UHGV virus genome: UHGV-0105321
DNA: 24,512 bases
Strand: one strand, 5' to 3'
Source of the DNA: a virus
Positions 8,892 through 24,512 of this stretch are shown here, one piece after another. The position numbers and the translations under genes were made by a program. Under the pieces are notes generated by a model. That model searched no databases. It was not told the DNA's origin and saw nothing but the letters and a program-made list of their open reading frames with translations. The stretch's first letter is position 1. Each line of letters begins with the position of its first letter.

Positions 8892-8969
8892 GAGTACGAT
8901 ACTAAAGCACTTGCAAAAACTTTCAGTTCAACCATAATACGTACTGAAAGTACGAAAAAGGATATTCCT
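8892..8969. promoter_or_regulatory. OR-type divergent control region: pR candidate (TTGCAA at 8911..8916, 17-nt spacer, ATAATA at 8934..8939) and a perfect 6-3-6 palindrome CGTACTGAAAGTACG (8940..8954)
   Basis: Near-consensus sigma-70 elements at correct spacing upstream of cro; palindrome overlaps the -10/+1 region; related ACTAAAG / CTTTCAGT half-sites further upstream. Confidence 0.6.
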
Positions 8970-9197
8970 ATGCAAAATCTTGATGAGCCGATTAAAGGTG
9001 TCGGCATCCCTGAAGTTGCGAAGGCTTGTGGAGTTAGCGAAAGGGCTGTCTATAAGTGGCTCAAAAACGGCTTCCTCCCTAAGACTGAGTTTTTTGGGAA
9101 AACTAAATACGCATCAAAAATCGAAGAGATTTCTGGTGGCAAATATCAAGCAAGCGAAATGCTTGAAATAAGCAAAAAGAACCTTCTGGCTGCATAA
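8970..9197 (+). CDS. cro: Cro-like HTH regulator, 75 aa
   Basis: Divergent from cI across the operator region; HTH-like VAKACGVSERAVYKWLKNG; AAGGA ribosome-binding site. Confidence 0.75.
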   Translation: MQNLDEPIKGVGIPEVAKACGVSERAVYKWLKNGFLPKTEFFGKTKYASKIEEISGGKYQASEMLEISKKNLLAA

Positions 9198-9204
9198 GTA
9201 ACAC

Positions 9205-9250
9205 CGCTCTTTTCACAATGGACATTCGTCCTACGTCGCTGACAAAGCGA
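9205..9250 (+). promoter_or_regulatory. nutR: boxA-like CGCTCTTTT (9205..9213) and boxB hairpin UCGCU-GACAA-AGCGA (9236..9250)
   Basis: boxA-like element just after the cro stop; boxB stem-loop carries the same GACAA loop as nutL with a different stem. Confidence 0.65.
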
Positions 9251-9335
9251 GTCCCAAGATATCTGACCAACTAAGGCCATATGCGTTTCCACGCATACCT
9301 TTCAACTAGCTATTCACTATTGGAAATCATAAGAA

Positions 9336-9632
9336 ATGACACAAACAAGTTACAGCAAACTATCCCAGCGTGACGTTGATCGCGCAGAAACAGATTTACT
9401 CATCAACCTGTCAGCTCTGACGCAAAGGGGACTGGCAAAGATGATTGGCTGCCATGAATCGAAGGTCAGTCGTACCGACTGGCGATACATCGCGGCGATT
9501 TTATGCGCGTTCCAGATGGCATCTGATATCAGTCCGATCAGCCGGGCTTTCCAGCATGCCATTAACGTTCATGCAAATAAAAAACGTCCGGTTGGGGCCG
9601 GACGTTCTGAGCAAATCCTGATGAATATCTGA
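9336..9632 (+). CDS. cII: CII-like transcriptional activator, 98 aa
   Basis: C-terminal ...NKKRPVGAGRSEQILMNI resembles lambda CII ...NKKRPAATERSEQIQMEF; position after cro and nutR. Confidence 0.85.
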   Translation: MTQTSYSKLSQRDVDRAETDLLINLSALTQRGLAKMIGCHESKVSRTDWRYIAAILCAFQMASDISPISRAFQHAINVHANKKRPVGAGRSEQILMNI

Positions 9633-9697
9633 TATTCAGGCAGGGCATGGAGCAATACACGGGAATAATTCTGCCACATCTGGAAGAATTTCGCCAG

Positions 9698-9765
9698 CAA
9701 CAACACCAACCGCAGCAGCCTGAAGCCGATTGGGTTAACCCGGGAGATACCGGGACCGTCTGCGG
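9698..9765 (+). repeat. Direct-repeat copy 1 (about 68 bp) duplicating an internal segment of the downstream initiator gene
   Basis: CAACAACACCAACCGCAGCAGCCTGAAGCCGATTGGGTTAACCCGGGAGATACCGGGACCGTCTGCGG recurs at 10441..10521 with few substitutions and a 23-nt insertion. Confidence 0.75.
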
Positions 9766-9795
9766 TATGGAGTAAATCTTGTATGCGAGGGGACT

Positions 9796-10872
9796 ATGCG
9801 TAATTACGCAACAATTTCACCTCAGTTCTGGTTAGGCGATACAGGGCGAAAACTAAGGAAGTCTGGTCCGGAATGTATGGTAGTGGCGTTGTATATGATG
9901 ACCTCGCCTCATTCCAATATGCTGGGCCTTTATTACCTGCCTGTTTTGTACATTGCTCACGAAACCGGACTTGCTCCTGAAGGGGCTTCTAAGGGGCTTC
10001 AAATGGCTTGCGAGGCTGGTTTTTGCAGCTATGACCATGATTCTGAGGTTGTATGGGTGCATGAAATGGCAGCATGGCAGGTTGGTGAATCGCTGAAACC
10101 TGGCGATAACCGTTGTGCTGGGGTAAGAAATGAATATTCCGCGTTGCTGGAAAATCCTTTTTTATCATCCTTTTATGATAGATATAAGGATGATTTCCAC
10201 CTGGATGTCAGACGTGAATCATGTCGGAAAATTGAAGCCCCTTCAGAGCCCCTTTCAAGCCAAGAACAGGAACAGGAACAGGAAAGGGATAAAACCCTTC
10301 TGGTCCATGGCGAAAAAATCGCCACGGACCCACAGGGGGATTTTTGTCCTGTTCTGACTGAACGTCCAGGACCAGATGGCACGACACCGGAAGCAGATTC
10401 CGGGCGTTGTGTGCAGCAGGTGCTGATCGTCGAACCGGAGCAACAACGCCAACCGCAGCAGCCTGAAGCCGATTCCGCGATGAGCGGGAAGCCGATTGGG
10501 TTAACCCGGGCGATGCCGGGACCGTCTGCGGGACGAGTTGATTATCCTGACGTGTTCGAACGGGTCTGGCGTGAATATCCGCATCGGGCAGGGTCAAACC
10601 CGAAGAAATCCGCGTTCAATGCCTGGAGGGCCAGATTACGCGAAGGGGTGTCACCGGATGTCGTGCTGGATGGCGTGAGGCGTTACGCAAGATACCTGGA
10701 GGCTACCGGGAAAGCGGGAACTGAATTTGTTCAGCAGGCATCGACGTTTTTTGGCCCGAACAGGAATTTCGAAAATCCGTGGTCGCTGCCGAAGGCTGGC
10801 GCAGTCAGCCTGCGTTGCGTGAATCACATTTCTGAACCGGACACCGAAATTCCGCCGGGTTTCAGGGGGTAA
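9796..10872 (+). CDS. Putative replication initiation protein (O position, not lambda O-like in sequence), 358 aa
   Basis: Located between cII and a DnaC-like loader with good ribosome-binding site; contains QEQEQEQE and short reiterated DNA motifs. Function assigned by position only. Confidence 0.55.
   Translation: MRNYATISPQFWLGDTGRKLRKSGPECMVVALYMMTSPHSNMLGLYYLPVLYIAHETGLAPEGASKGLQMACEAGFCSYDHDSEVVWVHEMAAWQVGESLKPGDNRCAGVRNEYSALLENPFLSSFYDRYKDDFHLDVRRESCRKIEAPSEPLSSQEQEQEQERDKTLLVHGEKIATDPQGDFCPVLTERPGPDGTTPEADSGRCVQQVLIVEPEQQRQPQQPEADSAMSGKPIGLTRAMPGPSAGRVDYPDVFERVWREYPHRAGSNPKKSAFNAWRARLREGVSPDVVLDGVRRYARYLEATGKAGTEFVQQASTFFGPNRNFENPWSLPKAGAVSLRCVNHISEPDTEIPPGFRG
10441..10521 (+). repeat. 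Direct-repeat copy 2, inside the initiator coding sequence
   Basis: Matches 9698..9765; contains an internal GAAGCCGATT duplication. Confidence 0.75.
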
Positions 10873-10878
10873 TCAGCC

Positions 10879-11619
10879 ATGAAAAACATTTCGACAGGAG
10901 GGATTCTTGAACGGGTGCGCCGTCTGGCACCACCGCACGTGGCAGCACCGTTCCGGACGACCGACGAATGGCGGGAATGGCAACTGGCTGAGGGCCGGAA
11001 GCGCAGCGAGGAAGTTAACCGCCAGAATCACCAGACGCGGGTTGAAAAAATCCTGAATCGTTCGGGCATCCAGCCGCTTCACAGGAAGTGCTCATTCGGG
11101 AACTACCGGGTGCAGAACGACGGTCAGCGCCATGCTCTGAGCCAGGCGAAATCCATTGTCGATGAATTAATGACCGGTTATACAAACTTCGTGTTCAGCG
11201 GGAATCCGGGAACCGGAAAAAATCATCTGGCGGCGGCTGTGGGTAATCGTCTGCTGAAGGCCGGTAAATCCGTGATAGTGGTCACCGTGGCGGATGTGAT
11301 GAGCGCGTTACATGCCAGCTATGACGACGGACTGTCAGGGGAAAAATTTTTGCGTGAACTGTGCGAAGTGGACCTCCTGGTTCTTGACGAAATTGGCATC
11401 CAGCGTGAGACGAAAAACGAGCAGGTGGTACTGCACCAGATTGTTGACCGCCGGACGGCATCACTGCGCAGTGTCGGGATGCTGACAAACCTGAATCATG
11501 CCGCAATGAGCACGCTTCTTGGTGAGAGGATTATGGACCGGATGACCATGAACGGTGGTCGTTGGGTGAATTTTAACTGGGAGAGCTGGCGGTCAAACGT
11601 TGGACGTCAGGGTATGTGA
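10879..11619 (+). CDS. DnaC/IstB-like AAA+ helicase loader, 246 aa
   Basis: Walker A GNPGTGKNHLAAA and Walker B LLVLDEIG; follows the initiator gene with a 6-nt gap. Confidence 0.85.
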   Translation: MKNISTGGILERVRRLAPPHVAAPFRTTDEWREWQLAEGRKRSEEVNRQNHQTRVEKILNRSGIQPLHRKCSFGNYRVQNDGQRHALSQAKSIVDELMTGYTNFVFSGNPGTGKNHLAAAVGNRLLKAGKSVIVVTVADVMSALHASYDDGLSGEKFLRELCEVDLLVLDEIGIQRETKNEQVVLHQIVDRRTASLRSVGMLTNLNHAAMSTLLGERIMDRMTMNGGRWVNFNWESWRSNVGRQGM

Positions 11620-11644
11620 GAATTTTTGACGAGGTAAATTTTCG

Positions 11645-11842
11645 ATGGAAACCGTATTGCATGCACTGAAAGCGATGGGAAAAGCCAATTCTGTTGAACT
11701 GGCGGCGCGGCTTGATATCAGCCGTGAAGAAGTTCTCAACGAACTGTGGGAGCTCAAAAAAAATGGCGTTGTTGATAAAACGGGTCACACCTGGTTTCTG
11801 GCTGTCGAAGGTGAAGCCGGGGTACGGAGTATTCCCGTCTGA
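11645..11842 (+). CDS. Small winged-helix-like DNA-binding protein, 65 aa
   Basis: HTH-like segment [35 protein letters not shown] upstream of the ATG. Confidence 0.5.
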
Positions 11843-12074
11843 ACAGGCTCGTAAGGACTGGCAAAATGCCCGCAAAAAACTCTCAAGGGCAAAGTCGAAG
11901 AAACCGGTTGTCGTTGATCCAGACCTTATCCGGGCATTACCAGATGGGGAAATACGGCGCTACGACAGACGCTACAACACAATTTGTCGCGAGTGCCGTA
12001 ACAGCGAAACGATGCAGCGTGTGCTGGCATTCTGGCGAGGGAGTGCAGAGGGATTGATGTTCTCCCCGTCGTGA
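11763..12074 (+). CDS. Hypothetical basic protein (about 103 aa if started at ATG 11763); overlaps the preceding ORF in another frame
   Basis: Long ORF with protein-like composition; start unresolved (ATG 11763 after GGGAG, or GTG 11811); 80-nt out-of-frame overlap with 11645..11842. Confidence 0.35.
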
Positions 12075-12106
12075 ATGACGGGGGCTTACGTGTTCAGAAA
12101 AGTGAT

Positions 12107-12781
12107 TCATATAGAGGCTGAATCTGATCTTTTTTGTTCACGTCTGGCTTCCACTATTGCAGGCAGAGTGAAGGCGTAGACTAAAAACATTTCGGTAAAA
12201 CTCAGGATCTGGCTTGCCTCAATTGGTGTGAAAACTTCATCTGTATGAACTGCTTTATTGGCATCAATTCGTACAATATGAGCCCATTCCTTCATCTGTT
12301 CAGTGATCAGGCCTTTTTTGTAAATCATCTGAATACGTTGCGACAGCGATTCTTTTCCTGCTTCATCGCCGAGCAGTTTTTTCGTGGAGATATCGAGGAC
12401 TCTGCGACAAAGAATAACCACTGTGTCGTACCGCCTCCTCTGTAAATCCTCTTTTGCCTCAACAAAAGTACGGTCTGCAACCGGGGGCGTATATTCTGGT
12501 GCGGTAATTTTTTTGACCACAGGATAGATCTTGCGGAAACGGTACTGGCTATTTCCTGAAATCAGAATATCGAGGTCTTTTTTCTGGCTTTCCGCCATGG
12601 GGCCGTGATAGTGGTCTGATGGGATTTCAACAATAGCAACACCTCCTCGATGACAACTTCTGCATACAAAAGCGACGTTAAAAAAAGGTGTTTTTTCAAT
12701 TTGTTTTTCGGCAAATGCCTCAATAACAGCTCGCTCTTTTAAACAGTGCGGGCATGTGATATCAAAGGAGACTAAACCCAT
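12107..12781 (-). CDS. Zinc-ribbon plus DUF4145-like protein, 224 aa, counter-oriented to the flanking rightward operon
   Basis: N-terminal CPHC...CRSCH; C-terminal half has the pattern I associate with DUF4145 (…EWAHIVRIDANKAVH…); GAGGAA ribosome-binding site before ATG 12779..12781. Confidence 0.7.
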   Translation of the reverse strand: MGLVSFDITCPHCLKERAVIEAFAEKQIEKTPFFNVAFVCRSCHRGGVAIVEIPSDHYHGPMAESQKKDLDILISGNSQYRFRKIYPVVKKITAPEYTPPVADRTFVEAKEDLQRRRYDTVVILCRRVLDISTKKLLGDEAGKESLSQRIQMIYKKGLITEQMKEWAHIVRIDANKAVHTDEVFTPIEASQILSFTEMFLVYAFTLPAIVEARREQKRSDSASI

Positions 12782-13025
12782 GGATATTCCTCGCGAAATT
12801 AAAGAAATTAACGAAATCATTGAGGTTACTGATCGCCCCGAGTTTACCCTCATGCGCCGTTATGAAACAGGAACCGACGAGCAAAAATACATCATGGTTG
12901 CAGCATTGGCTGTGATGGCGATAGAAAGGGAGCGAAGGGAAAAGGACGTAATGGTTATTCCTGCGAGAAATGATTCACCGGATTTGAGATGGCAGGAGCC
13001 GGAGTGGGATGTGGTAATCCGGTGA
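12780..13025 (+). CDS. Hypothetical small protein, 81 aa from ATG 12780
   Basis: AAGGAG 9 nt upstream of the ATG; its start codon overlaps the divergent start of the DUF4145-like gene at a CATG. Could be spurious. Confidence 0.3.
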   Translation: MDIPREIKEINEIIEVTDRPEFTLMRRYETGTDEQKYIMVAALAVMAIERERREKDVMVIPARNDSPDLRWQEPEWDVVIR

Positions 13026-13079
13026 TTGATATTTCTCTGGGGTAAAGCGCCGCCAGAATGACGGCGCGGTAGTGGAGAG

Positions 13080-13388
13080 TTAAACGAAGCGGATCTGGAG
13101 TTTTTTCCCTGTAGCACGGGCGAATTTTTTCAGTGTGGCAAATGATGGGCCGCTTGTACCTGATGCAAGATTGCTTTCCATTCTGGTTATCGCAGTCGCT
13201 TTTGTTCCCATACGTTCAGCAACTTCAGCCTGGGTTAAGCCAGCTTCTTTTCGTGCTGCCAGCATTTCATCAAGTAGTGCGAATTCATCGGCGATGGCGT
13301 CGTATTCTGCTTTTACTGCGGGGTTAGACAACATTTTTTCTACCATTTCATCGTGTGTCATGGTAGGTGGGGTACGTTTACCAGTCAT
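13080..13388 (-). CDS. HTH (XRE-like) antitoxin of a HigA/Gp48 type, 102 aa
   Basis: HTH-like LTQAEVAERMGTKATAITRMESN; overlaps the upstream toxin ORF by 11 nt; toxin-then-antitoxin order. Confidence 0.72.
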   Translation of the reverse strand: MTGKRTPPTMTHDEMVEKMLSNPAVKAEYDAIADEFALLDEMLAARKEAGLTQAEVAERMGTKATAITRMESNLASGTSGPSFATLKKFARATGKKLQIRFV

Positions 13389-13707
13389 GCTTAACCTCCT
13401 TCATTCTGGTTTCAGCTTTTCTAAGCTCGGCAGGTGGAGTTTTTTGCGTTTTCTTTACAAAGCTATGCAACATAATGATTCGCTTTCCTTTTAGCGTGCA
13501 GTAAAAAACACGCCCTATGCCTTCCGAGCCCTTAAGGCGGATTTCAAACAAACCGTCGCCAAATGCCTCTGTATGCGGGGAACCAAGATTAGCTCCGTAA
13601 ATACGCATTTTCTCCGTGTACCGAATGTACCGGGCTTGTAAGGTCTCAGGAAGAGAAAGGATCTCAGCTTCAACCTCGTCACTGTAGTATTCGATAATGT
13701 AGTTCAT
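13378..13707 (-). CDS. RelE/HigB-like (Gp49-like) toxin, about 109 aa from ATG 13707
   Basis: Size and sequence character (…FGDGLFEIRLKGSEGIGRVFYCTLKGKRIIMLHSFVKKTQKTPP…) typical of HigB/Gp49-family toxins paired with a downstream HTH; palindrome AACAAATTTGTT in the promoter region. Start codon uncertain (13707 or 13719). Confidence 0.68.
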   Translation of the reverse strand: MNYIIEYYSDEVEAEILSLPETLQARYIRYTEKMRIYGANLGSPHTEAFGDGLFEIRLKGSEGIGRVFYCTLKGKRIIMLHSFVKKTQKTPPAELRKAETRMKEVKHDW

Positions 13708-13839
13708 GAGAGTAAACATAACAAATTTGTTATATACATTCAAGGTATGTTGACGACAACACATATCCGGGATTATATTCTTCGCACGCCAGCAAAATCT
13801 GGCGTCGGGATTAGCACCCCGGATATCGAAACGGTGCAT

Positions 13840-13861
13840 AACCGCGCTGGCGGTTTTTTTA
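13840..13861 (+). terminator. Intrinsic terminator (stem AACCGC/GCGGTT, loop GCTG, then T7); tR2-like
   Basis: Short GC hairpin directly followed by TTTTTTT on the plus strand, upstream of the nin region. Confidence 0.5.
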
Positions 13862-14024
13862 TGCGCTAAGCACAGTCACATTCGCGATTTATGGCGGGCT
13901 GTGTGGGGGAGCCGAAAGGCTCGCCGGATGTTTCGACCGGTAGTGCTAACCCCGCACAGTTCGCCACCACGATGATTAGCACCTGAAGGTGGTGAGGTAA
14001 AAATTATCGAAACGCGAGGTCGTT

Positions 14025-14699
14025 ATGACTGTTCAAATCTCTGTCAAAAACCTTTCCCCTGTTACCTATAACCAGATTCCGGTAATCACAACTGAGTTGC
14101 TTGCCCGCCTTTATGGAACAGAAACAATCCGTATACAGCAGAATCACCATGAAAATAAATCTCGGTTTATTGAGGGAAAGCACTTCTTTAAAGCTGTTGG
14201 TGATGAACTCAGAAATTTGCGACTAGTTTTAAACGAGTCGCAAAATGAGGTGAAAATCTCTCCCAAAACCCGCTCGCTCATCCTCTGGACAGAACGAGGC
14301 GCAGCCCGCCACGCAAAAATGCTAGAAACCGATCAGGCGTGGGAAGTGTTCGAAAAACTGGAAGACTGCTATTTCAGCCAGGGAAAAACAGCACCAACCG
14401 AACAGCAGCCGCAGATTCAGCCACAATTCACAGCCGAAGAAATCATCCTCCTTTGCTACATGCAACTCTGGATGGAAAAAGCCCAGGACCTTAGCAAGCA
14501 GCTGTACCCCATAATGAAAGAGCTGAACTCCTCATACACGAACAAGCTGTATGACATTGCGTTTGAGACCATCTACATGGTGACGAAGAACAGAGACGCG
14601 CTACTAAGGGAGGTAACACGTCTCGACATGTCAAGTTCCGTTATCCAGCGGGCCATGCCAATGCTGAAAAGCCTGCGGGCAAGACAATTTGAATTCTGA
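14025..14699 (+). CDS. Hypothetical nin-region protein, 224 aa, possibly antirepressor-like
   Basis: Well-formed ORF followed by a terminator; the N-terminal region weakly resembles phage regulatory/antirepressor N-terminal domains by eye. Confidence 0.45.
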   Translation: MTVQISVKNLSPVTYNQIPVITTELLARLYGTETIRIQQNHHENKSRFIEGKHFFKAVGDELRNLRLVLNESQNEVKISPKTRSLILWTERGAARHAKMLETDQAWEVFEKLEDCYFSQGKTAPTEQQPQIQPQFTAEEIILLCYMQLWMEKAQDLSKQLYPIMKELNSSYTNKLYDIAFETIYMVTKNRDALLREVTRLDMSSSVIQRAMPMLKSLRARQFEF

Positions 14700-14705
14700 A
14701 ACTAA

Positions 14706-14726
14706 AGGAGCTTCGGCTCCTTTTTT
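14706..14726 (+). terminator. Intrinsic terminator (GGAGC-TTCG-GCTCC followed by TTTTTTGTT)
   Basis: Perfect 5-bp stem, tetraloop, T-run, immediately after the stop at 14699. Confidence 0.6.
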
Positions 14727-14753
14727 GTTGGGAAAATCCAGTGAGAGGGAATA

Positions 14754-15164
14754 ATGAACCAGACTATCTTCCTCCGAAGTAAGCAGCAGCAACAATTCGC
14801 CATTAACGCCATCCTTGCAACAACTCTCGATAAAGACAAACCCGTTACGATCCGTATCACCGATTACAAGCGTAATCTCGCTCAAAATGCAAAATTTCAC
14901 GCGATGGTCGCTGATATATCCCGCCAGGTTAAGTGGTGCGGCAGGTGGCTAAAACCAGAACAGTGGAAAGTTTTGTTAATCAGCGGTCATGCCGTGGCGA
15001 CAAAACAGGAAGCTGATGTTTTGCCAGGTCTTGAAGGTGAATACGTCAATATCCGCGAAAGCAGTGCGCAGATGAGCGTGAAGCGTATGGCAAGCCTGAT
15101 TGAGTACACAACTTCCTGGGCTGTGGATCAGGGTGTCAGATTTACCGACAGGAGGTATGAATGA
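14754..15164 (+). CDS. ninB: NinB-like recombination protein, 136 aa
   Basis: Segment [32 protein letters not shown] resembles lambda NinB as recalled; first gene of a nin-type block. Confidence 0.75.
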
Positions 15165-15352
15165 GACGACAGCGACGAAGCATCACCGATATCGTCTGTG
15201 AAAACTGCAATTACCTTCCAACCAAACGCTCCCGAAATAAACCCAGGCCAGTCCCCAAAGAATCTGATGTTAAAACCTTCAACTATACGGCTCACCTGTG
15301 GGATATCCGGTGGCTAAGGCGTCGAGCAAGATTTAATTGTCACTCCGGATAG
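15161..15352 (+). CDS. ninE: NinE-like protein, 63 aa
   Basis: N-terminus [11 protein letters not shown]...C.NC.Y matches my memory of NinE-family proteins; start overlaps the ninB stop. Confidence 0.6.
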
Positions 15353-15372
15353 CCTACTGCATGAGGAATAAG

Positions 15373-15666
15373 ATGATGACAAACCTACGCAAAGAAGCGC
15401 GCGGCAGAGAATGCCAGGTACGGATTTACGGCGTATGCAATGGCAACCCTGAAACTACAGTTCTGGCGCATTACCGAATGGCTGGAATTTGCGGAACGGG
15501 AATGAAGCCTGACGACCTGATCGGTGCATGGGCTTGTAGTGACTGCCACGCGGAGATCGACCGACGCACCCGAATTCTCGACAACAACGACGCCAGACTT
15601 TACCACCTGGAAGGCGTGATCAGGACGCAGGCGATATTGCTGAAGGAGGGGAAGATTAAGTCATGA
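15373..15666 (+). CDS. YbcO-like (DUF1364) putative nuclease, 97 aa
   Basis: …LRKEARGRECQVRIYGVCNGNPETTVLAHYRMAGICGTGMKP…CSDCHAEIDRRT closely resembles the DLP12 YbcO family as recalled; GAGGAA ribosome-binding site. Confidence 0.75.
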   Translation: MMTNLRKEARGRECQVRIYGVCNGNPETTVLAHYRMAGICGTGMKPDDLIGAWACSDCHAEIDRRTRILDNNDARLYHLEGVIRTQAILLKEGKIKS

Positions 15667-16025
15667 ATGAATATGAGTTTGTGCTTCCCTGGCCGCCGAC
15701 GGTGAATACCTACTGGCGAAGACGGGGAAGCCAGTACTACATCAGCGATAAAGGCCAGAAATACCGAAAAGACGTACAGCAAATCATCCGGCAACTCAGA
15801 TTAGACATTTTCACTAAATCACGACTTCGCATCACAATTATTGCTGAACCACCAGATTCCCGCCGTCGCGACCTCGATAACATCCTGAAAGGTTTACTCG
15901 ACTCTCTTATCCACGCCGGATTTGCGGAAGACGACGAGCAATTCGATGACATTCGCGTAATTCGCGGCGTGAAAGTGCCTGGCGGTAGAGTGGGGATAAA
16001 AATCACCGAACTGGAGAACATATGA
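15663..16025 (+). CDS. rusA: RusA-type Holliday junction resolvase, 120 aa
   Basis: …FVLPWPP…NTYWRRR…RRRDLDNILKGLLDSLIHAGF…DD…I resembles RusA; start overlaps the upstream stop (ATGA). Confidence 0.85.
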   Translation: MNEYEFVLPWPPTVNTYWRRRGSQYYISDKGQKYRKDVQQIIRQLRLDIFTKSRLRITIIAEPPDSRRRDLDNILKGLLDSLIHAGFAEDDEQFDDIRVIRGVKVPGGRVGIKITELENI

Positions 16026-16222
16026 ACGCCACAATTCAAACAATACCGGAATTGCTTATCCAGGCACGAGGCAATATGACTGAAGTTTCACGAAAACTGA
16101 ACTGTAATCGTGCTACGGTCAGAAAATATGTCGGTGATAAAGAAGGCAAACGGCACGCCGTCGTCAACGGTGTCCTTATGGTTCATCGTGGATGGGATAA
16201 GGGGAAAGCTACTGATGCGTGA
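16022..16222 (+). CDS. ninH: NinH-like protein, 66 aa
   Basis: …TIPELLIQARGNMTEVSRKLNCNRATVRKYVGDKEGKRHAVVNGVLMVHRGW resembles lambda NinH as recalled. Confidence 0.7.
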   Translation: MNATIQTIPELLIQARGNMTEVSRKLNCNRATVRKYVGDKEGKRHAVVNGVLMVHRGWDKGKATDA

Positions 16223-16457
16223 TATTCAGCAGGTGCCTGAACGCATGGCTTTATTCAGGTCGTCTGGAAAAGCGCATGAGCAGCGTAATAGCGGAGTTCA
16301 TGGCGAAGAGTATATGAACAGATTATTCGAATGCTATATGAGACTGAAGCACGGAGATCGCTATGACCTGACATGTGATGCTGACGGTTTCTACTGCCGT
16401 GAAGTTGTGAAACGAATGTTTGAAGTGTGGTGTCATTGTAAAGGATGGGGGCTGTGA
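16215..16457 (+). CDS. Small Cys/His-rich protein, 80 aa; N-terminus MRDIQQVPER resembles the start of Q82/QuuD-type antiterminators
   Basis: ATG 16215 with purine-rich upstream; only the first 10 residues recall Q-family proteins; stop overlaps the next start (TGATG). Confidence 0.4.
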   Translation: MRDIQQVPERMALFRSSGKAHEQRNSGVHGEEYMNRLFECYMRLKHGDRYDLTCDADGFYCREVVKRMFEVWCHCKGWGL

Positions 16458-17071
16458 TGCGGCTAACCCCAGTATTCGGCATGGTTAACTTTATTAATGA
16501 TGCTCATTTCCGCCGCATATGGAGGCATCCGAAGAAAATCATTAACTCTCGTCAGAAAGCATGGGTTCACTACATGCTACAGGTATGGGGAAATGTTAAC
16601 GCTGGTGATGATTCTCCTTGTGGTGCAATTAACGTTATTGGGCGACTGATGATTCGCAGTCAGTGGAGCGATGACAAAGCTAAGCAGATTGAGTCTGTTG
16701 TCATGCGTCTGTATGAAGAAGACGGACTACGTGGAGATGAACTCCATCAGAAAGCCCGAGAACTGGTCATCCCTCAGTCATCGGCAGGTAATATCATTGC
16801 TCTCGCCAAAGAATCCGATGATGCTGCTTTCGTTGAACGTGTGATGGTTGAGACCTTTCATCGTGAAAGCCCTGTCCGTGATGTAGCTATTAGGCGATAT
16901 TGCAATCGCGACAGCACGCAAGATATCGCCAGGATGATTTCTCAGATAACAGGAGTTGATATTCAGTATTGCCGGAGGCGGGTCGTGTGGTGCGAGAGGG
17001 TCCTTGATTCAGAAATGTTTTATGCAATGAAGCGAGAATTGGAGAAAGAACTTCTAGTGATTGCTGGATGA
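16457..17071 (+). CDS. Hypothetical protein, about 204 aa, in the Q position (last gene before the late-promoter region)
   Basis: Translationally coupled to the preceding small ORF; followed by a terminator and promoter-like units. No recognisable lambda-Q zinc motif; function inferred from position only. Confidence 0.45.
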   Translation: MRLTPVFGMVNFINDAHFRRIWRHPKKIINSRQKAWVHYMLQVWGNVNAGDDSPCGAINVIGRLMIRSQWSDDKAKQIESVVMRLYEEDGLRGDELHQKARELVIPQSSAGNIIALAKESDDAAFVERVMVETFHRESPVRDVAIRRYCNRDSTQDIARMISQITGVDIQYCRRRVVWCERVLDSEMFYAMKRELEKELLVIAG

Positions 17072-17231
17072 TGCAAAATATTTTTTGTAAATGCGTTGCT
17101 TTCGAGAAATGAAAGTAGTATGTTTTGTGTATGCTCGGAGCAAAAGCGCACTGAGAAGCGAAAGAGAAATCCTGATTTACCTCGGTCGTCGATAATATTT
17201 AGGATCGGCATACTGGCTAGATTAGGTAAAG

Positions 17232-17260
17232 GCCTCGGCAGAAATGTCGGGGCTTTTTGT
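17232..17260 (+). terminator. Intrinsic terminator (8-bp stem with two G-U pairs, loop AGAAAT, then TTTTTGTTTG)
   Basis: Hairpin 17232..17253 directly followed by a T-run. Confidence 0.5.
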
Positions 17261-17581
17261 TTGCACAACAGGTAAGAGCATTGAACCCGCAGACCTCGTG
17301 GAATTGGTGAAAGGTGTGCGCAGTGCTCTTATCGTTGTGGTGAAGCTCAATGGCGAGCTAGCAGACAGGCGACTGTGAAAATACTAGTCATGTAGCGGAT
17401 CGCCGCGCGTATTGTAATCGGCAGCGCACCGATGGGAGCTGGTTCGATTCCGGCCGCCACAATCCAAACTGAGCCGTAGCCTCTGGGTGTCCTGAATTCA
17501 TCAGTGATAGTTACGCTGCGGCCTTCTACATACGATTTTTGTGAAAAGCGGGTGGCAAGAGGCTGCGAAATTTTTAAATAC

Positions 17582-17804
17582 CTCACAATTCCACAGCTTG
17601 ATGATTGTCTGGCTGCCGGAGAATTTGTTAAAAATTGCATCGCGTGGTGAATCCCCCTCAGCGGCGGGGCATCTGGCAAAGTGTATGATCCAGCGAACAT
17701 GCAAATTCAGTAGCCAGGCTGAATTTACCGGGAGGCACCTGGCACCATGCGACAGACAGAAATTAGGCTATACTTCAGCCCCTCTCCGGAGGGGCTTTTC
17801 TGTG
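17582..17804 (+). repeat. Late-promoter-like unit A: -35 TTGTCT (17605..17610), -10 TAAAAA (17629..17634), conserved hairpin, terminator hairpin 17777..17796 plus T-run
   Basis: Shares block-wise similarity with unit B (18051..18286), including the terminator AGCCCCTCTCCGGAGGGGCU and the motif CACCGGGAGGCACCYGGCACCATGC. Confidence 0.6.
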
Positions 17805-17990
17805 CAGGATGTGTCACAGTTTCCTGAATTCTGAGTACTGTCCTGTTACTCAGGGTGCTATATTTTCTGACGTGATGAAAGTCTGCCGGAAGGCGGAACG
17901 TATCGGAAATGACCCAGTAGAGAAAACGTTGACTCAGATACCGATGCTGAGTTACCGGGAAACCGGCATCACATGACCGCTATCCTTCCA

Positions 17991-18013
17991 GGCTCGCTCC
18001 GGCGGGCCTTTTT
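17991..18013 (+). terminator. Intrinsic terminator (GGCTCGC-TCCG-GCGGGCC followed by TTTTT)
   Basis: 7-bp stem with one G-U pair and a T5 run, between the two repeat units. Confidence 0.45.
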
Positions 18014-18050
18014 ACTGCAGAAAACAGTTTTCCCGTAAAATGCCACGTTA

Positions 18051-18286
18051 CTCACAATTCAGGCTGGCGATTATTGTCTGGCCAGCGGGAAGTTTGTTAA
18101 AAAAATATGGCATGGTGAATCCCCTGTGCGGAGGGGCATATCAGCGACAGGTGTTTGGTCACACCCCTTATCCTTTCTGGTGCGGGTTCAGGTGCTGATA
18201 CTGAACTCACCGGGAGGCACCCGGCACCATGCATGAACGGTACATAGCGCTACTCTCCAGCCCCTCTCCGGAGGGGCTTTCTTGTT
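18051..18286 (+). repeat. Late-promoter-like unit B: -35 TTGTCT (18074..18079), -10 TAAAAA (18098..18103), hairpin, terminator 18259..18286
   Basis: Tandem paralogue of unit A; identical terminator stem; compensatory substitutions in the internal hairpin (CCCCT...AGGGG versus CCCC...GGGG). Confidence 0.6.
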
Positions 18287-18290
18287 GGAT

Positions 18291-18319
18291 AAAAAAAAGC
18301 CCGCGCCGGGAAGCGCGGG
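18291..18319 (-). terminator. Minus-strand intrinsic terminator (stem CCCGCGC/GCGCGGG followed by U8), back-to-back with the unit B terminator
   Basis: A8 run then GC hairpin on the plus strand, which is hairpin plus U8 on the minus strand. Confidence 0.55.
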
Positions 18320-18520
18320 TGGCAAGGAATAAACAACAAAACGTGAAGTGATCAATTTTCAGCTGGCGAATAATACCCGACAGTAATCACTCTGCGCAAC
18401 TGTATGGTCTTTTTCGTATTGCGGGCTGTAGTCATCCTCCTGTTTCTGAACCCTTGTCCATGACTGACGTCAGCCCGCACCTTATCTTGATTGCATACAC
18501 TATCCCTGCCGGGAGGAATA

Positions 18521-18829
18521 ATGGCATTTAAACACTATGACGTGGTCAGGGCATCATCGCCGTCAGACCTCGCAGGAAAACTGACGCAAAAACTGAAGGA
18601 AGGCTGGCAACCCTATGGTAGTCCGATTATCTCAAACGCGGGTTATGGTGCTGAATTTATCCAGGCTATTATGGTTCCGGTGGACGAACGGATGCGAAGA
18701 GCTGGACAACATCCGATCGTAAAACCCACTTTGGTTCATGGGCGCGTCGCGGAATTATTTCCGACCGTCTGGCAACAGCCATTCTTCTGCATGTGGGCAG
18801 AGTGGCAGATTTTGTTTCCGGGAAAGTGA
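18521..18829 (+). CDS. DUF1737-like N-terminal domain ORF (MAFKHYDVV...), about 102 aa as written; probably part of a larger frame-disrupted gene
   Basis: GGGAGGA ribosome-binding site before ATG 18521; N-terminal sequence resembles the DUF1737 domain that I recall at the N-terminus of prophage NanS-p esterases; the ORF runs into an overlapping frame. Confidence 0.5.
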   Translation: MAFKHYDVVRASSPSDLAGKLTQKLKEGWQPYGSPIISNAGYGAEFIQAIMVPVDERMRRAGQHPIVKPTLVHGRVAELFPTVWQQPFFCMWAEWQILFPGK

Positions 18830-19587
18830 CAAAAGCCGCGGTTTCTTCAGGCGGAGGCGTATCGCAACCAGCACAGGAGAGTGGCGATACTCAGCCTGAA
18901 TCCGTTGTCCCGACAAAGATACAGTCAGTGCTGGCTTATGATGCGAATGCGGAAAATGCCGATCTGGCTTCGCAGGGCTGGACGCTGACAGATGTCAAAA
19001 ACACGCTGGTCAGTGACAGTGGTTCAGGTAAAAAAGCCCTTCGTCTTGAAAAACCAGAAAATGGTCTTGCACAGAAAAAGACCTGGAAAGTATCGCACGC
19101 AATTGATGCCGGTAAGGGGAAGGAGCTGTTCGATAACGGCGGTGAAATCACGCTGCGCTTTAAAATCCCCGATGATGTATCTCTCAATGCTTCTGCAAAT
19201 CAATATTCTGCGGGTATTTACTGGCGCGGTAGTGGATGGCCGGGAGCGGAATCAGAGGAGGGTTATATTGCGGCCTTCTATCTGCAGACTGATAAAACAA
19301 ACATCAATGTGATGTATCATGCAAACACCACATCACAGCGGCTTGGTAGTTATGGTCCGTTCGATCACGACTGGCACACGCTGACTTTCCGCTTCCCGGG
19401 TGGTGGCTCGCTGAACGTCACGCCGGTGCTTGATAATGCAGCAGGAAAACCGTTTACGCTGACCAGATGGACGAATGCAGCCTTTGAGGCCAACGCGCTG
19501 GCAATTACGGATATTACCGGAAATGCGGCAACTTACCCTGTGCTGATTGAAAGTCTTACTGTTGGTGTGAATGCCGTAGCAGCATAA
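18793..19587 (+). CDS. Beta-rich putative carbohydrate-binding-like domain ORF, 264 aa, with no in-frame ATG until far downstream; likely continuation of the DUF1737 gene after a frameshift
   Basis: Long ORF with protein-like composition (Gly/Thr/Asn-rich); track start is a GTG; overlaps the upstream frame over 18793..18829. Confidence 0.5.
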   Translation: MGRVADFVSGKVTKAAVSSGGGVSQPAQESGDTQPESVVPTKIQSVLAYDANAENADLASQGWTLTDVKNTLVSDSGSGKKALRLEKPENGLAQKKTWKVSHAIDAGKGKELFDNGGEITLRFKIPDDVSLNASANQYSAGIYWRGSGWPGAESEEGYIAAFYLQTDKTNINVMYHANTTSQRLGSYGPFDHDWHTLTFRFPGGGSLNVTPVLDNAAGKPFTLTRWTNAAFEANALAITDITGNAATYPVLIESLTVGVNAVAA

Positions 19588-19727
19588 CAGACGAAAAAAA
19601 CCGCCAGCAACAGGAATGGAGACTGGCGGAGGTAATCCCAATGGAGAATCTAACGAAAGGATGCTTTCGACATCAATCATTTCTAAATGAAAACAGTTCT
19701 CATTGTCAACAGTAACGGTAATAAACC

Positions 19728-19922
19728 ATGACATTCATCAACCAGTTAATGCTGTACTTCTGTACGGTGGTCTGTGTGTTGTATCTGCTTTCGGGTGGAT
19801 ACAGGGCAGTACGCGACTTCTGGCGCAGACAGATTGACAAAAGGGCCGCTGAGAAAATCAGCGCCACTCAGTCAGCCGGAGCAAAAACAGAAGCCCCACT
19901 CATTCCGGAACAACCTTCTTAA
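19728..19922 (+). CDS. Small membrane protein, 64 aa (one transmembrane helix then a basic segment)
   Basis: Hydrophobic stretch LMLYFCTVVCVLYLLSGGY; weak ribosome-binding site. Confidence 0.4.
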   Translation: MTFINQLMLYFCTVVCVLYLLSGGYRAVRDFWRRQIDKRAAEKISATQSAGAKTEAPLIPEQPS

Positions 19923-19947
19923 TAACCCCTTTCAACGAGAAAATCTC

Positions 19948-20238
19948 ATGACAGATATAAAACAACTGGTCACTGCTGAGGCAGTGAAGGAAGTCATTCG
20001 CTCTGAAGAAGTCAGAAGCGTCCTGAAACAAAAACTCCGCCAGAATCTGGAAGAGCGTCTTGATGCAGAAGTGGATTCAATTCTGGATGAATTGCTTGGT
20101 GCACAGCCGGAACCATCCCCGGAACTGCTTCCGGAACCACAGGCGGAAGATGTCACCACGGAAAATGGTGATATTCAGCCGGAGTCACCGGTGACGGATA
20201 TGACAGACACACAACCCGAACCGGGCACAATGCTGTAA
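19948..20238 (+). CDS. Acidic hypothetical protein, about 96 aa from ATG 19948
   Basis: ORF ends just before a strong terminator at 20250..20281; weak ribosome-binding site; Glu/Pro-rich C-terminus. Confidence 0.4.
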   Translation: MTDIKQLVTAEAVKEVIRSEEVRSVLKQKLRQNLEERLDAEVDSILDELLGAQPEPSPELLPEPQAEDVTTENGDIQPESPVTDMTDTQPEPGTML

Positions 20239-20249
20239 CGGCGGGGCAG

Positions 20250-20281
20250 GGCCATCAGTAAAACACTGATGGCCTTTTTTA
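20250..20281 (+). terminator. Strong intrinsic terminator (9-bp stem GGCCATCAG/CTGATGGCC, 7-nt loop, then T6)
   Basis: Perfect inverted repeat 20250..20258 / 20266..20274 followed by TTTTTT. Confidence 0.7.
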
Positions 20282-22281
20282 TTTCCGGTAGCACAGGTCT
20301 GTCGGGGCGGGGATATGTATCAGATGGAAAAAATATCAACGGGCATATCCAGGTGGCAACCTCATTCCGTTCAGGTACGGTGCAGCGCCTGCATATCTCA
20401 GAGCACGGCAAAATTTGCGCAAAATATCCGGCTAAGGCGAAAGAACTGCGAACCGGTACACTTAATGCCGTCTCTGATGAGTGCATTATTTTTGATGAAT
20501 CCACTGCTGAAGGTGTGGGTGGCGATTTTTACGAGATGAGTACCGTTGATGGTGTTCTGGGTATGGAGGCCAAAACGCGGACTGATCTGTTGGTGATATC
20601 AGATGATCCTGATGATGAAACAGAAAAACTGGCTGAAGCTATTAATGCTGAATTTGCCGATGCTTGCCGCCTTGGAAATATGAATAAAGCCCGTTCTGAT
20701 GCCTATGCGGAACAAATCAAAGCGGGGCTCAGCTGGGTGGAGGTCAGACGGAACAGCGATCCGTTCGGGCCTGAGTTTAAGGTGTCTACTGTCAGCCGGA
20801 ATGAAGTGTTCTGGGACTGGCTCAGCCGGGAGGCTGATTTAAGTGACTGCCGCTGGCTGATGCGCCGCCGCTGGATGGATACCGATGAGGCAAAAGCCAC
20901 ATTTCCGGGAATGGCTCAGGTTATCGATTATGCCATTGATGACTGGCGTGGTTTTGTCGATACCACGGTTACTGAAGGCCAGCCCAGTCCGTTGATGAGT
21001 GCATGGGAAGAGTATCAGTCATGGGATCGACAGCAGAACGAATGGCTTCAGCGTGAACGCCGTCGTGTGCTGCTTCAGGTGGTTTATTACCGTACATTCG
21101 AGCGTCTTCCGGTGATTGAACTCAGTAATGGACGGGTGGTGGCCTTTGATAAAAATAATCTGATGCATGCGGTGGCTGTGGCATCCGGGCGGGTGCAGGT
21201 GAGAGTCGGGCGGGTAAGTCGTATTCGTGAAGCCTGGTTTGTGGGACCGCACTTTATTGTGGATCGCCCCTGCAGTGCGCCGCAGGGGATGTTCCCGCTG
21301 GTTCCCTTCTGGGGATACCGGAAGGATAAAACCGGGGAGCCTTACGGGCTGATTTCCCGGGCCATTCCGGCACAGGATGAGGTGAATTTTCGTCGTATAA
21401 AACTGACGTGGTTGCTTCAGGCCAAACGCGTGATTATGGACGAGGATGCCACCCAGTTGTCAGACAACGATCTGATGGAGCAGATCGAGCGTCCGGATGG
21501 CATTATTAAACTGAATCCGGCCCGAAAAAATCAGAAAAGCGTTGCTGATGTTTTCCGGGTTGAACAGGATTTTCAGGTTGCCAGCCAGCAGTTTCAGGTC
21601 ATGCAGGAGTCGGAAAAACTTATCCAGGACACGATGGGGGTTTATTCCGCATTTCTCGGGCAGGATTCAAATGCATCGTCCGGCGTGGCGATCAGCAACC
21701 TGGTGGAGCAGGGAGCCACAACCCTTGCCGAAATCAACGATAACTACCAGTTTGCCTGCCAGCAGGTGGGAAGGCTGTTGCTCGCTTATCTTCTTGATGA
21801 CCTGAAAAAGCGGCGTAATCATGCGGTGGTGATTAATCGCGATGATCGTCAGCGTCGCCAGACCATTGTCCTCAATGCTGAAGGTGATAATGGTGAACTG
21901 ACCAATGATATTTCAAGGTTAAATACACATATTGCGCTGGCTCCTGTTCAGCAGACACCGGCGTTTAAGGCACAGCTTGCACAGAGAATGTCAGAGGTTA
22001 TTCAGGGGCTGCCGCCTCAGGTGCAGGCTGTTGTGCTCGATCTGTGGGTTAATCTTCTGGATGTGCCGCAGAAACAGGAATTTGTCGAACGTATTCGTGC
22101 GGCGCTGGGGACGCCAAAATCACCGGATGAGATGACTCCGGAAGAGCAGGAAGCGGCAGCACAACAGCAGGCGCTGGAGCAACAGCAGGCAGAACTTCAG
22201 ATGCGCGAAATGACAGGCCGGGTGCGTGAGGCATTTCGCCGTCGTGTTGCGGAGACTGAACAGCATGGCGGAACTGACTGA
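20269..22281 (+). CDS. Large late-region structural protein, up to 670 aa, with portal-like character (tentative); true start unresolved
   Basis: Uninterrupted frame ending in a Gln/Ala/Glu-rich helical tail (…EEQEAAAQQQALEQQQAELQ…) as seen in portal proteins; the annotated 5' end overlaps the terminator hairpin and no in-frame start has a good ribosome-binding site. Confidence 0.5.
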   Translation: MAFFISGSTGLSGRGYVSDGKNINGHIQVATSFRSGTVQRLHISEHGKICAKYPAKAKELRTGTLNAVSDECIIFDESTAEGVGGDFYEMSTVDGVLGMEAKTRTDLLVISDDPDDETEKLAEAINAEFADACRLGNMNKARSDAYAEQIKAGLSWVEVRRNSDPFGPEFKVSTVSRNEVFWDWLSREADLSDCRWLMRRRWMDTDEAKATFPGMAQVIDYAIDDWRGFVDTTVTEGQPSPLMSAWEEYQSWDRQQNEWLQRERRRVLLQVVYYRTFERLPVIELSNGRVVAFDKNNLMHAVAVASGRVQVRVGRVSRIREAWFVGPHFIVDRPCSAPQGMFPLVPFWGYRKDKTGEPYGLISRAIPAQDEVNFRRIKLTWLLQAKRVIMDEDATQLSDNDLMEQIERPDGIIKLNPARKNQKSVADVFRVEQDFQVASQQFQVMQESEKLIQDTMGVYSAFLGQDSNASSGVAISNLVEQGATTLAEINDNYQFACQQVGRLLLAYLLDDLKKRRNHAVVINRDDRQRRQTIVLNAEGDNGELTNDISRLNTHIALAPVQQTPAFKAQLAQRMSEVIQGLPPQVQAVVLDLWVNLLDVPQKQEFVERIRAALGTPKSPDEMTPEEQEAAAQQQALEQQQAELQMREMTGRVREAFRRRVAETEQHGGTD

Positions 22282-22828
22282 TTTTTTACCGTATGTCCGT
22301 CGCCATATCAGTGGTCCGCTGAACATTATGATGACGGATGCGTTATCCATGTCGGCAGTGGCATTCTGCCGTCAGTCCCTGTTGTGCCGCCGTGAAGCCA
22401 CGCTGTCACCGCCAGCCGGAGAGGACTGTGTGCTGCCATATGACGCGGAGAATGAAGAGTGCGTACATATTATTCGTATCCTCGCTGACGGGCGTGAGCT
22501 TTTTGCCGGTCATGATGTGGAAATCCGCCCGGGGCGGGTAATGCATTTTGCCTGTTCGCCCGGAGAGGTGAGTGTGCTTTATGCCGTTGCTCCGAAAGCA
22601 GGGAGCCGTCAGGTGCAGGATGAACTGCGGGCATGGTCTGAAGAAGTGGCTGCAGGGGCGCTTGAACGGTTGTTCATGCAGACCGGGGTTTCATGGTCAG
22701 ACCCGTCGCGCGCACAGTATTTCTCTGTGCTGTTTTCTGAGGGTATCCGTCGGGCATATCGCGACACACTGGCGACAAGTCCGTACTCCTCATACCGCAA
22801 TCCTGTCCGCAGACAAAGGTTTTACTGA
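22265..22828 (+). CDS. Hypothetical late protein, about 187 aa from ATG 22265
   Basis: GGAG upstream; overlaps the end of the large ORF by 17 nt; stop overlaps the next start (TGATG). Confidence 0.55.
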   Translation: MAELTDFLPYVRRHISGPLNIMMTDALSMSAVAFCRQSLLCRREATLSPPAGEDCVLPYDAENEECVHIIRILADGRELFAGHDVEIRPGRVMHFACSPGEVSVLYAVAPKAGSRQVQDELRAWSEEVAAGALERLFMQTGVSWSDPSRAQYFSVLFSEGIRRAYRDTLATSPYSSYRNPVRRQRFY

Positions 22829-23478
22829 TGACGACGATTACTGAAATCATCGGACGAGTGAACACGCAACTGGTTGACCCGATGATGGTGCGCTGGCCTC
22901 TGGCTGAGCTGTGTGATTATTACAATGATGCTGTGCGGGCGGTGATTCTGGCAAGGCCGGATGCAGGCGCAAGTCTGGAGACGCTGAATTGTGTTCCTGG
23001 TGCACGTCAGACTTTGCCTGATGGCGCAATACAGCTTCTTGACGTGATATGCCTCAGCGATGGCAGTGCTATAAAACCGCAATCCCGTGAGGTGCTTGAT
23101 GCACAGTATCCCGACTGGCACATGCTGAGGGGGAAACCGGAATGCTTTATCAGCAGTGACCTTGCCCCGCGCGTGTTCTGGCTGTTTCCGGCACCGGAGG
23201 AGGCTGTGAGTGTTGATGCTGTGGTCAGCCGCATTCCGGAGGCGGTGTATGTTCTGACGCAGGATGATGACACGCCTGTACCGCTGGAAGAGGCTTATGT
23301 TAACCCGCTGGTTGACTGGATGTTGTTTCGTGCATTCAGCAAGGATGCAGCCGGTGGTGCAGAGTCAGGACTGGCAGCACAACATTATCAGAGTTTTGTT
23401 GAGCAGCTCGGGATTAAACAGGGTGCAGACAGTGCATTGTCTGCCCGCAAGAAGGTGTTTAACGGAGGTGGAATGTGA
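22828..23478 (+). CDS. Hypothetical late protein, 216 aa
   Basis: ATG coupled to the upstream stop; stop overlaps the GTG start of the tail fiber gene. Confidence 0.6.
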
Positions 23479-24512
23479 GTGTTGTTGTTTCGGGGACGCT
23501 GAAATCTCCTGATGGTGAGGCGATATCAGGCGCAAATATTACCCTGACGGCGCTGACAGTTTCACCGGATGCGCTCAGCGGCACCAGTGCGTCAGCAGTG
23601 ACTCGTGACGGCGGGTATTACGGAATGACGCTGGAGCCGGGGGAGTATGCGGTTTCTGTGACGGTGAAAGGGAAGACTGCTGTCTACGGACGTGTGCGTA
23701 TTGAGGGGACTGAAAGTACGGTGACGCTCAATATGCTGTTACGCCGCAGTCTTGTTGAGGTGAGCATACCCGGAGAACTGCTGACAGATTTCCGGCAGAT
23801 ACAGAACAATGTGGCGGATGACCTTGCCACGATTCGTCGTCTGAACGAAGACACGGCGGTGAAAAATAATCAGGCTTCACAGTCGAAGGAAAGCGCTGCT
23901 GCCAGTGCGAAGACTGCATCAGAAAGCGCGAAGGCTGCGACCAGCAAAGCGACGGAGTCTGCACAAAAAGCCAGTGAGGCTGCAGAGGCGGCGACCCGGG
24001 CAGGTGAGTCTGAAAAGGCAGCGGCAGCTGACGCTAAAGAGGCCAGACAACATGCTGAAACCGCCAGAGTGGCTCAGGAGGCCGCCGGAGACGTTCTTAA
24101 ACGTGCTGAGGCTGCTACAGTTAGTGCTGAAGAAGCCAGACGTATGGCTGAGAATGCACGAGGACCTAAAGGCGATACAGGGCCGAAAGGTGATGCTGGT
24201 CCTCGTGGTGAAACAGGTCCGGCGGGTCCGCGTGGGGAGAAAGGTGAGCAGGGAGAGCGCGGACCTCAGGGCATACCGGGCCAGAAAGGTGATACAGGAG
24301 AACGGGGACCTCAGGGAGTGCAGGGGCCAGCTGGCCCACGTGGTGCGACCGGGCCACAGGGAGCAATGGGGCCGCGTGGTGAAACCGGGGCCAGAGGCGA
24401 AAAAGGAGACCCGGGGGGGCCTCAGGGACCAAAGGGGGATGCTGGTCCGAGAGGTGAGCCGGGGCCGAAAGGTGACACCGGCCCACGTGGAGAGGCCGGA
24501 CCACCCGGACCA
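23475..24512 (+). CDS. stf: Side tail fiber (Stf-like) protein, N-terminal 346 codons; continues beyond the window
   Basis: GTG start after GGAGGTG; N-terminus [27 protein letters not shown]... resembles lambda Stf (MAVKISGVLKDGTGKPV...); Ala/Ser/Glu-rich coiled segment, then collagen-like Gly-X-Y repeats from about 24166 to the window end. Confidence 0.85.

Follow-up and report, generated by a model that had tools for sequence, protein, structure and literature searches.

Two overlapping reading frames in a decaying lambdoid prophage are very probably the remains of one NanS-p-type sialate O-acetylesterase gene with a 907-bp internal deletion

Do two overlapping reading frames in the viral genome UHGV-0105321 form a new two-part protein, or are they the broken ends of one known gene? 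The window in which we addressed this question is the whole 24,512-nucleotide stretch of DNA that was analyzed, and the genes, reading frames, and RNA matches placed below lie on its plus strand. The first frame, ORF1, runs from an ATG at 18521 to a TGA at 18827–18829 and specifies a 102-aa product (TTG 18491 is a possible alternative start); a Shine-Dalgarno motif read from the sequence, GGGAGGA (18511–18517), stands 3 nt before the ATG. The second, ORF2, is listed as running from GTG 18793 to 19587 and encodes 264 aa, although its frame is open from 18655, not merely from 18793. A preliminary description of the locus had noted that a second long frame overlaps the first and that it lacks an in-frame ATG for about 170 codons, and both observations hold: the overlap is 37 nt, in different frames, and ORF2 reaches an in-frame ATG only at codon 174 (19312). 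Earlier candidate starts are limited to the GTG codons at 18793, 18802, 18826, and 18928, and the GTG at 18826 overlaps the ORF1 stop at 18827 in the sequence GTGA. On inspection of the sequence, none of the GTG codons has a Shine-Dalgarno motif at a usable distance.

Profile and structure searches assign the two frames to known domains. Residues 3–51 of ORF1 match DUF1737 (Pfam PF08410; E = 4.3e-17), positions 19135–19467 in the ORF2 frame match DUF6645 (Pfam; E = 1.5e-27), and the C-terminal domain of ORF2 matches the NanS-p structure PDB 6yp6 (E = 2.9e-44), bearing out the DUF1737-like start and the beta-type domain that had been read from the letters alone. The Pfam SASA esterase model matches neither ORF1 nor ORF2, neither contains an esterase motif as translated, and an NCBIfam scan returned no family either for the split proteins or for the intact protein introduced below. 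The region therefore shows the DUF1737 domain and the lectin-like C-terminal domain of NanS-p and lacks its central SGNH/SASA esterase, and in place of one continuous ORF of ~636–657 aa, as is usual for NanS-p, it holds two overlapping ORFs in different frames.

The origin of this arrangement becomes apparent from complete genomes. A megablast search of window positions 18300–19800 against 5,426 complete E. coli genomes, with hits kept at ≥80% query coverage, recovered 20 records at 99.2–99.9% identity, every one of which (20/20) aligns in two pieces, occupying ~2408 bp in the record versus 1501 bp in the window. Most of these records carry a single 1974-bp coding sequence annotated as “SASA family carbohydrate esterase” (WP_016237845.1, 657 aa), and the deletion allele is present in no complete genome of the collection. 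Pairwise blastn against one intact-allele record (L001) aligns window 18300–18669 with L001 3001–3370 at 99.7% identity and window 18664–19800 with L001 4272–5408 at 99.9% identity, leaving the window without 907 bp relative to the intact gene. The junction falls on a 3-nt microhomology, TAT, at 18667–18669, equivalent to L001 3368–3370 on the left and 4275–4277 on the right. An imperfect CC(A)GGCTAT repeat is found near both breakpoints (left, CCAGGCTAT; right, CCGGCTAT, 7 nt upstream of the breakpoint); judged from the sequence, repeat and microhomology would fit slipped or illegitimate recombination. The DNA removed amounts to codons 51–351 plus one base, and the reading frame shifts because 907 = 3 × 302 + 1.

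Both ORFs thus derive from one ancestral NanS-p-type gene, as had been suspected: they align in two pieces to a single 657-aa gene, with flanks 99.7–99.9% identical. The earlier picture of a frame-disrupted, esterase-less nanS-p-like gene was essentially right, but the lesion is of another kind and in another place, being a 907-bp deletion at 18667–18669 and not a frameshift near 18793–18829. A small or homopolymer indel at 18793–18829 was considered and rejected, as both frames align gap-free to the intact gene there and the frame changes at 18667–18669.

The intact allele is common. The exact protein occurs on 448 contigs, its 90% cluster has 387 members, and its hosts are non-Stx lambdoid prophages of commensal and extraintestinal E. 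coli, along with the induced phages PhiR5_2 and PhiR12_3; the gene of PhiR12_3 (ECOR13 host) is 99.5% identical to it, and PhiR5_2 covers the DNA query completely at 99.3% identity. Pfam finds DUF1737 (residues 3–53), SASA, and DUF6645 in WP_016237845.1, while structure matches assign residues 71–391 to the fold of E. coli NanS/YjhS (PDB 3pt5; E = 3.3e-118) and residues 437–653 to that of NanS-p (PDB 6yp6; E = 1.3e-43). These matches show a predicted ancestral plan of DUF1737, a NanS-like SGNH type II esterase (~71–391), a linker, and a lectin-like jelly-roll domain (~437–653), which by domain assignment is the published NanS-p architecture. The Stx-phage NanS-p proteins (933W L0105/z1466, VT2-Sakai orf42, and phi24B vb_24B_21/gp84) are experimentally shown Neu5,9Ac2 esterases. 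The ancestral gene shares their three-domain plan and their place, with Q (or stx) on one side and the lysis genes on the other. Protein identity to them is ~58–59% over the full length of the intact allele, which represents a divergent subtype with no stx upstream. Its C-terminal domain matches the crystal structure of the phi24B protein, in which the lectin-like domain spans residues 423–645 of vb_24B_21 (PDB 6yp6) and Y510, Y515, Y540, and F611 have been proposed as the aromatic residues of the sugar site. According to a 2026 preprint, DUF1737 of phi24B gp84 decorates the capsid; Tyr42 serves as its anchor, and the domain ends near Gly54. Chromosomal NanS (YjhS), whose catalytic residues are Ser19 and His301 (PMC9063846), is matched by the intact esterase domain and has neither DUF1737 nor the lectin domain.

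The window copy keeps the two ends of this plan. Codons 1–50 (18521–18670) are the native 5′ end of nanS-p, with the DUF1737 residue Tyr42, and are identical to WP_016237845.1 at 50/50 residues. Beyond them ORF1 reads esterase-stub and linker DNA in the wrong frame, giving a tail of 52 nonsense codons before the TGA (18671–18829) that aligns with no NanS-p in an alignment of NanS-p proteins. The frame from 18664, in turn, is identical at 307 of 307 positions to intact residues 351–657. It retains a 3′ esterase stub of 40 aa (18667–18786, in the ORF2 frame; intact residues 352–391), which matches residues 292–331 of PDB 3pt5 (E = 3.4e-06) and includes the block IV RKTH motif (intact 369–372); the His372 of this motif (codon 18727–18729) lies upstream of every start in the ORF2 frame, and this stub of the last ~40 residues, presumably untranslated, is all that the window has in common with chromosomal NanS. 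ORF2 as listed corresponds to intact residues 394–657, that is, linker and C-terminal domain. The lectin-like jelly-roll domain, similar to carbohydrate-binding modules, extends over 18922–19572 (PDB 6yp6; E = 2.9e-44), and the four proposed sugar-site aromatics are conserved as Tyr531 (19204), Tyr536 (19219), Tyr556 (19279), and Phe624 (19483) in the numbering of the intact allele.

What has been lost is residues 51–351, nearly the whole of the NanS-like SGNH esterase domain with its blocks I–III. Against the 634 positions of phrog_143, ORF1 covers 1–56 and ORF2 covers 405–631, with the gap between them uncovered. The GQSN motif (residues 85–88), which carries the nucleophile equivalent to NanS Ser19, falls inside the deleted 907 bp, in keeping with the earlier remark that no SGNH-esterase motif is visible. 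No esterase can be made because the GQSN nucleophile and SGNH blocks I–III are lost, and with the nucleophile deleted, de-O-acetylation of Neu5,9Ac2 and mucin is predicted to be absent; since the catalytic domain is gone, the activity that defines the Stx-phage enzymes would have no means of existing here. The suggestion that a carbohydrate-binding domain had replaced the esterase finds no support: the C-terminal domain is the normal lectin-like one of NanS-p, shared with the intact allele at 100% identity, and the esterase has simply been deleted. We conclude that the region is very probably a pseudogene, in which one 907-bp internal deletion has inactivated a prophage gene for a NanS-p-type sialate O-acetylesterase.

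The preliminary description had raised sequencing error as an a priori possibility, and nothing else speaks for an artefact, whether a small indel error or a misassembly of two contigs. A look-up of the exact protein places the 102-aa ORF1 product on 8–9 contigs from at least six assemblies (five ENA metagenome assemblies and one NCBI assembly), of which ERZ917765 is a human gut metagenome by its record name. Among the carriers, L004 is 100% identical to window 9190–24512, L007 and L008 match the window through the junction at 100% identity, and L005 and L006 are 99.7–99.98% identical to the window. The exact 40-nt junction gave zero matches in genome, metagenome, and viral contig collections, the allele being found by the exact-protein look-up instead. 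Homopolymer errors and k-mer graph collapses do not yield a 907-bp gap with 3-nt junction homology, and the same junction recurs in at least six assemblies from different samples, with contig names that point to different assemblers. Found as it is in different samples, such a gap is no error of sequencing or assembly, and we regard an artefact as having next to no probability. The allele is nonetheless rare, with 8 contigs for the frameshifted product versus 448 for the exact intact protein.

The genomic setting is that of a NanS-p gene, in the late region after Q and before the lysis cassette, and the cargo position after Q noted earlier is confirmed. Upstream lies a Q-like late antiterminator gene (16445–17071; phrog_753, “anti-termination protein Q-like,” E = 3.5e-68), which follows ninH in related prophages. 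Downstream are a DUF1378 gene (19728–19922) and a DUF826 gene (19834–20238), as annotated in intact relatives (L001 and L003), a pair that matches phrog_494 and phrog_311/8301, and then the first 11 codons of a class II holin gene (20315–20347). The Q-like gene is separated from nanS-p by 1.45 kb of noncoding DNA that, at the site of the tRNAs and stx of Stx phages, holds a tandem pair of the Rfam sRNA STnc100, at 17612–17805 (138.7 bits; terminator-like hairpin at 17777–17796) and 18081–18289 (129.8 bits; terminator-like hairpin at 18259–18278). No tRNA was found between Q and nanS-p, and there is no stx among the ORFs or annotated genes there. The Q-like gene and two STnc100 copies upstream, and DUF1378 and DUF826 downstream, are shared with the intact allele, from which the window copy differs by the absence of the 907 bp (residues 51–351) and the resulting frameshift; their flanks are 99.7–99.9% identical, and residues 1–50 and 351–657 are the same in both.

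The lesion in nanS-p is one of several in this element. An alignment with the intact G6/7 prophage of E. coli (L003) reveals four further deletions in the window, of 788 bp at ~11823, 3078 bp at 20346/47, 1282 bp at ~20543, and 3535 bp at 22222–24, with junction microhomologies of 2–3 nt (TA, TA, TA, and GTG, respectively). The five deletions, spread over ~15 kb, remove 9.6 kb in all, each at a microhomology of 2–3 nt that contains TA in four of the five. Surviving segments are ~97–99.9% identical to L003, and 99.0–99.9% around the nanS-p, holin, and portal junctions, so that the ratio of deletions to substitutions in the window prophage is very high. The four further deletions take out the holin gene after codon 11 (it is severed by the 3078-bp deletion), the lysozyme and lysis protein genes, and a gene labelled “terminase” that in L003 is a frameshifted pseudogene. 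They also remove most of a 568-aa ORF in the large-terminase position, trim the portal gene at both ends, and eliminate the major capsid gene (Phage_capsid_3 in L003). Because lysis, terminase, portal-end, and capsid genes have been removed, the prophage is cryptic and cannot form virions. The capsid-decorating role proposed for DUF1737 would have no cognate capsid in the window element; ORF1 keeps Tyr42 yet is cut at residue 50.

Several other features of the element accompany this decay. The carrier contig L005 (ENA ERZ15609685) has deletions 2–4 and lacks the 788-bp deletion (window 11820), and at site 5 (window 22224–23061) it has a larger deletion, from L003 28082 to 32452 versus 28080 to 31613 in the window, with the left breakpoint within 2 nt; such a pattern points to a circulating lineage that decays step by step, or to a breakpoint prone to deletion. 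A 670-aa ORF (20269–22281) is chimeric: its first ~25 codons are out-of-frame holin-region sequence, followed by a 200-bp fragment from the large-terminase position, fused in frame to a portal gene missing its start and its end (P22_portal, residues 92–653), and it finishes in downstream head-gene sequence; it would be misannotated as a portal protein. Window 6407–9189 has no close match in the G6/7 prophage, which is otherwise nearly identical, and over this segment L004 agrees at its 5′ end with G6/7 and not with the window; by these alignments, a module has been exchanged at the immunity region (the repressor/KilA-N side), a case of mosaicism within the lineage. Positions 13773–13971 give Rfam matches to isrK, to C4 antisense RNA, and to the a1/b1 target of the latter, immediately upstream of an ORF6N/antirepressor-type gene (14025–14699), and 13773–14699 as a whole looks like a P1/P7-style C4-controlled antirepressor module in a lambdoid prophage. 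In E. coli G8 (L002 1722–3697), codon 273 of the same nanS-p allele, in the esterase domain, carries an independent inactivating lesion, a 2-bp insertion or a complex change, and the RefSeq annotation is that of a frameshifted pseudogene. The IS-interrupted CTR3/“sequence 16” of O157 Stx2a phages is, like G8, another independent nanS-p disruption; those lesions are an IS insertion and a small indel, whereas that in the window is a large microhomology deletion of the catalytic domain.

We also considered whether the two frames might be rejoined by recoding. ORF1 contains just one in-phase heptamer of the form X XXY YYZ, G GGA AAG (18820–18826), directly before its TGA (18820–18829 with the stop), and the −1 frame at this point is that of ORF2. 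GGGAAAG is the slippery sequence of lambda G/GT (PMC3296357), and the lectin domain downstream, with its four aromatic site residues, is intact. If ~1–5% of ORF1 ribosomes slipped −1 here, they would salvage a ~355-aa protein composed of DUF1737, a 52-aa junk linker, and the lectin domain, an esterase-less capsid-binding or glycan-binding protein. The heptamer, however, already exists in the intact gene as S-G-K-V codons and is missing from three other nanS-p alleles (VT2-Sakai, phage 86, and Stx1_132418). NanS-p homologues are single ORFs, so that of the features of a lambda G/GT-type −1 site the in-phase heptamer at the overlap is present, but neither the site nor the two-frame arrangement is conserved among the homologues. 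Shuffling the 160-nt tail produces an in-phase heptamer in 16% of cases, and one with Y = A or T in 7.6%, a chance expectation of 8–16% with which the heptamer at the ORF1 end is compatible. Downstream, predicted RNA structure is not better than in shuffles (z = −0.64), giving no sign of a stimulatory element. The deletion is, moreover, too recent for selection to have shaped anything, and the prophage has no capsid gene whose product could be decorated. Salvage by recoding is accordingly very unlikely; the programmed frameshifting raised earlier is not needed for the arrangement, with a heptamer that is present at the ORF1 end and not conserved.

A second way in which both frames could be functional is as two separately translated proteins, the DUF1737 protein of ORF1 and a free lectin domain from ORF2, the latter made by termination–reinitiation at GTGA (GTG 18826/TGA 18827). 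Public gene callers do start ORF2 at GTG 18826 (253 aa) or GTG 18802 (261 aa); PHROG contains a stand-alone family for the C-terminal domain (phrog_3591) and short DUF1737 families (phrog_2036 and phrog_9498); and the preprint on phi24B gp84 reports that most DUF1737 proteins are single-domain. A search with the C-terminal domain for natural in-frame DUF1737–DUF6645 proteins lacking the esterase returned only 9 clusters, mostly partial fragments, which speak neither for nor against such proteins. The stand-alone families may themselves be annotation products of disrupted genes. Against a functional two-part variant also stand the lack of a Shine-Dalgarno motif at a usable distance from any GTG, the nonsense sequence of the ORF1 tail, the rarity of the allele (8 contigs against 448 intact), and the fact that the 907-bp deletion of a single ORF wholly explains the arrangement. 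We consider this reading highly improbable, and the proposal of a new two-part protein finds no support, both ORFs being ends of one gene.

In the pseudogene reading, illegitimate recombination at the TAT microhomology would have removed codons 51–351 and one base. Translation from the native Shine-Dalgarno motif and ATG 18521 would then give 102 aa, DUF1737 cut at residue 50 followed by 52 nonsense residues, and ORF1 is probably still translated in late transcription as this truncated DUF1737 peptide with its nonsense tail. The distal codons of ORF2 would be untranslated or translated at trace level only. The lesion appears recent and neutral, one step in a decay by deletion that is still under way in a cryptic phi24B/933W-like prophage. 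A mutation-free C-terminal domain could mean maintenance, but a deletion that happened very recently would leave it just as clean, and we take the flawless ORF2 to reflect recency of the deletion, and not selection. In the one diverged carrier, L006, ORF2 has three substitutions, all nonsynonymous by codon position, too few for a test of selection. Nothing in the data contradicts the pseudogene reading. Given the in-phase heptamer and GTG 18826 at the ORF1 stop, low-level expression of the lectin domain could still occur; that the remnant is not fully silent, with a −1 slip or GTG reinitiation yielding a lectin-domain protein, DUF1737-fused or free, is a small chance. Were it true, it would be a case of accidental “saviour” recoding, with an enzyme turned into a pure glycan- or capsid-binding protein.

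The window copy is a nanS-p pseudogene of a known family, neither an esterase nor a new type of protein, and it offers nothing new in kind. The finding carries little biological weight and is useful mainly for annotation: gene callers report a “DUF1737” protein and a “DUF6645” protein, which between them make up a single dead nanS-p gene. As a case of prophage decay by short-microhomology deletions the locus is clean and datable, with more than 99.7% identity around the nanS-p junction. The ability of E. coli strains to grow on O-acetylated mucin sialic acids is inferred from how many nanS-p copies they carry, and the window copy should not be included in such a count.
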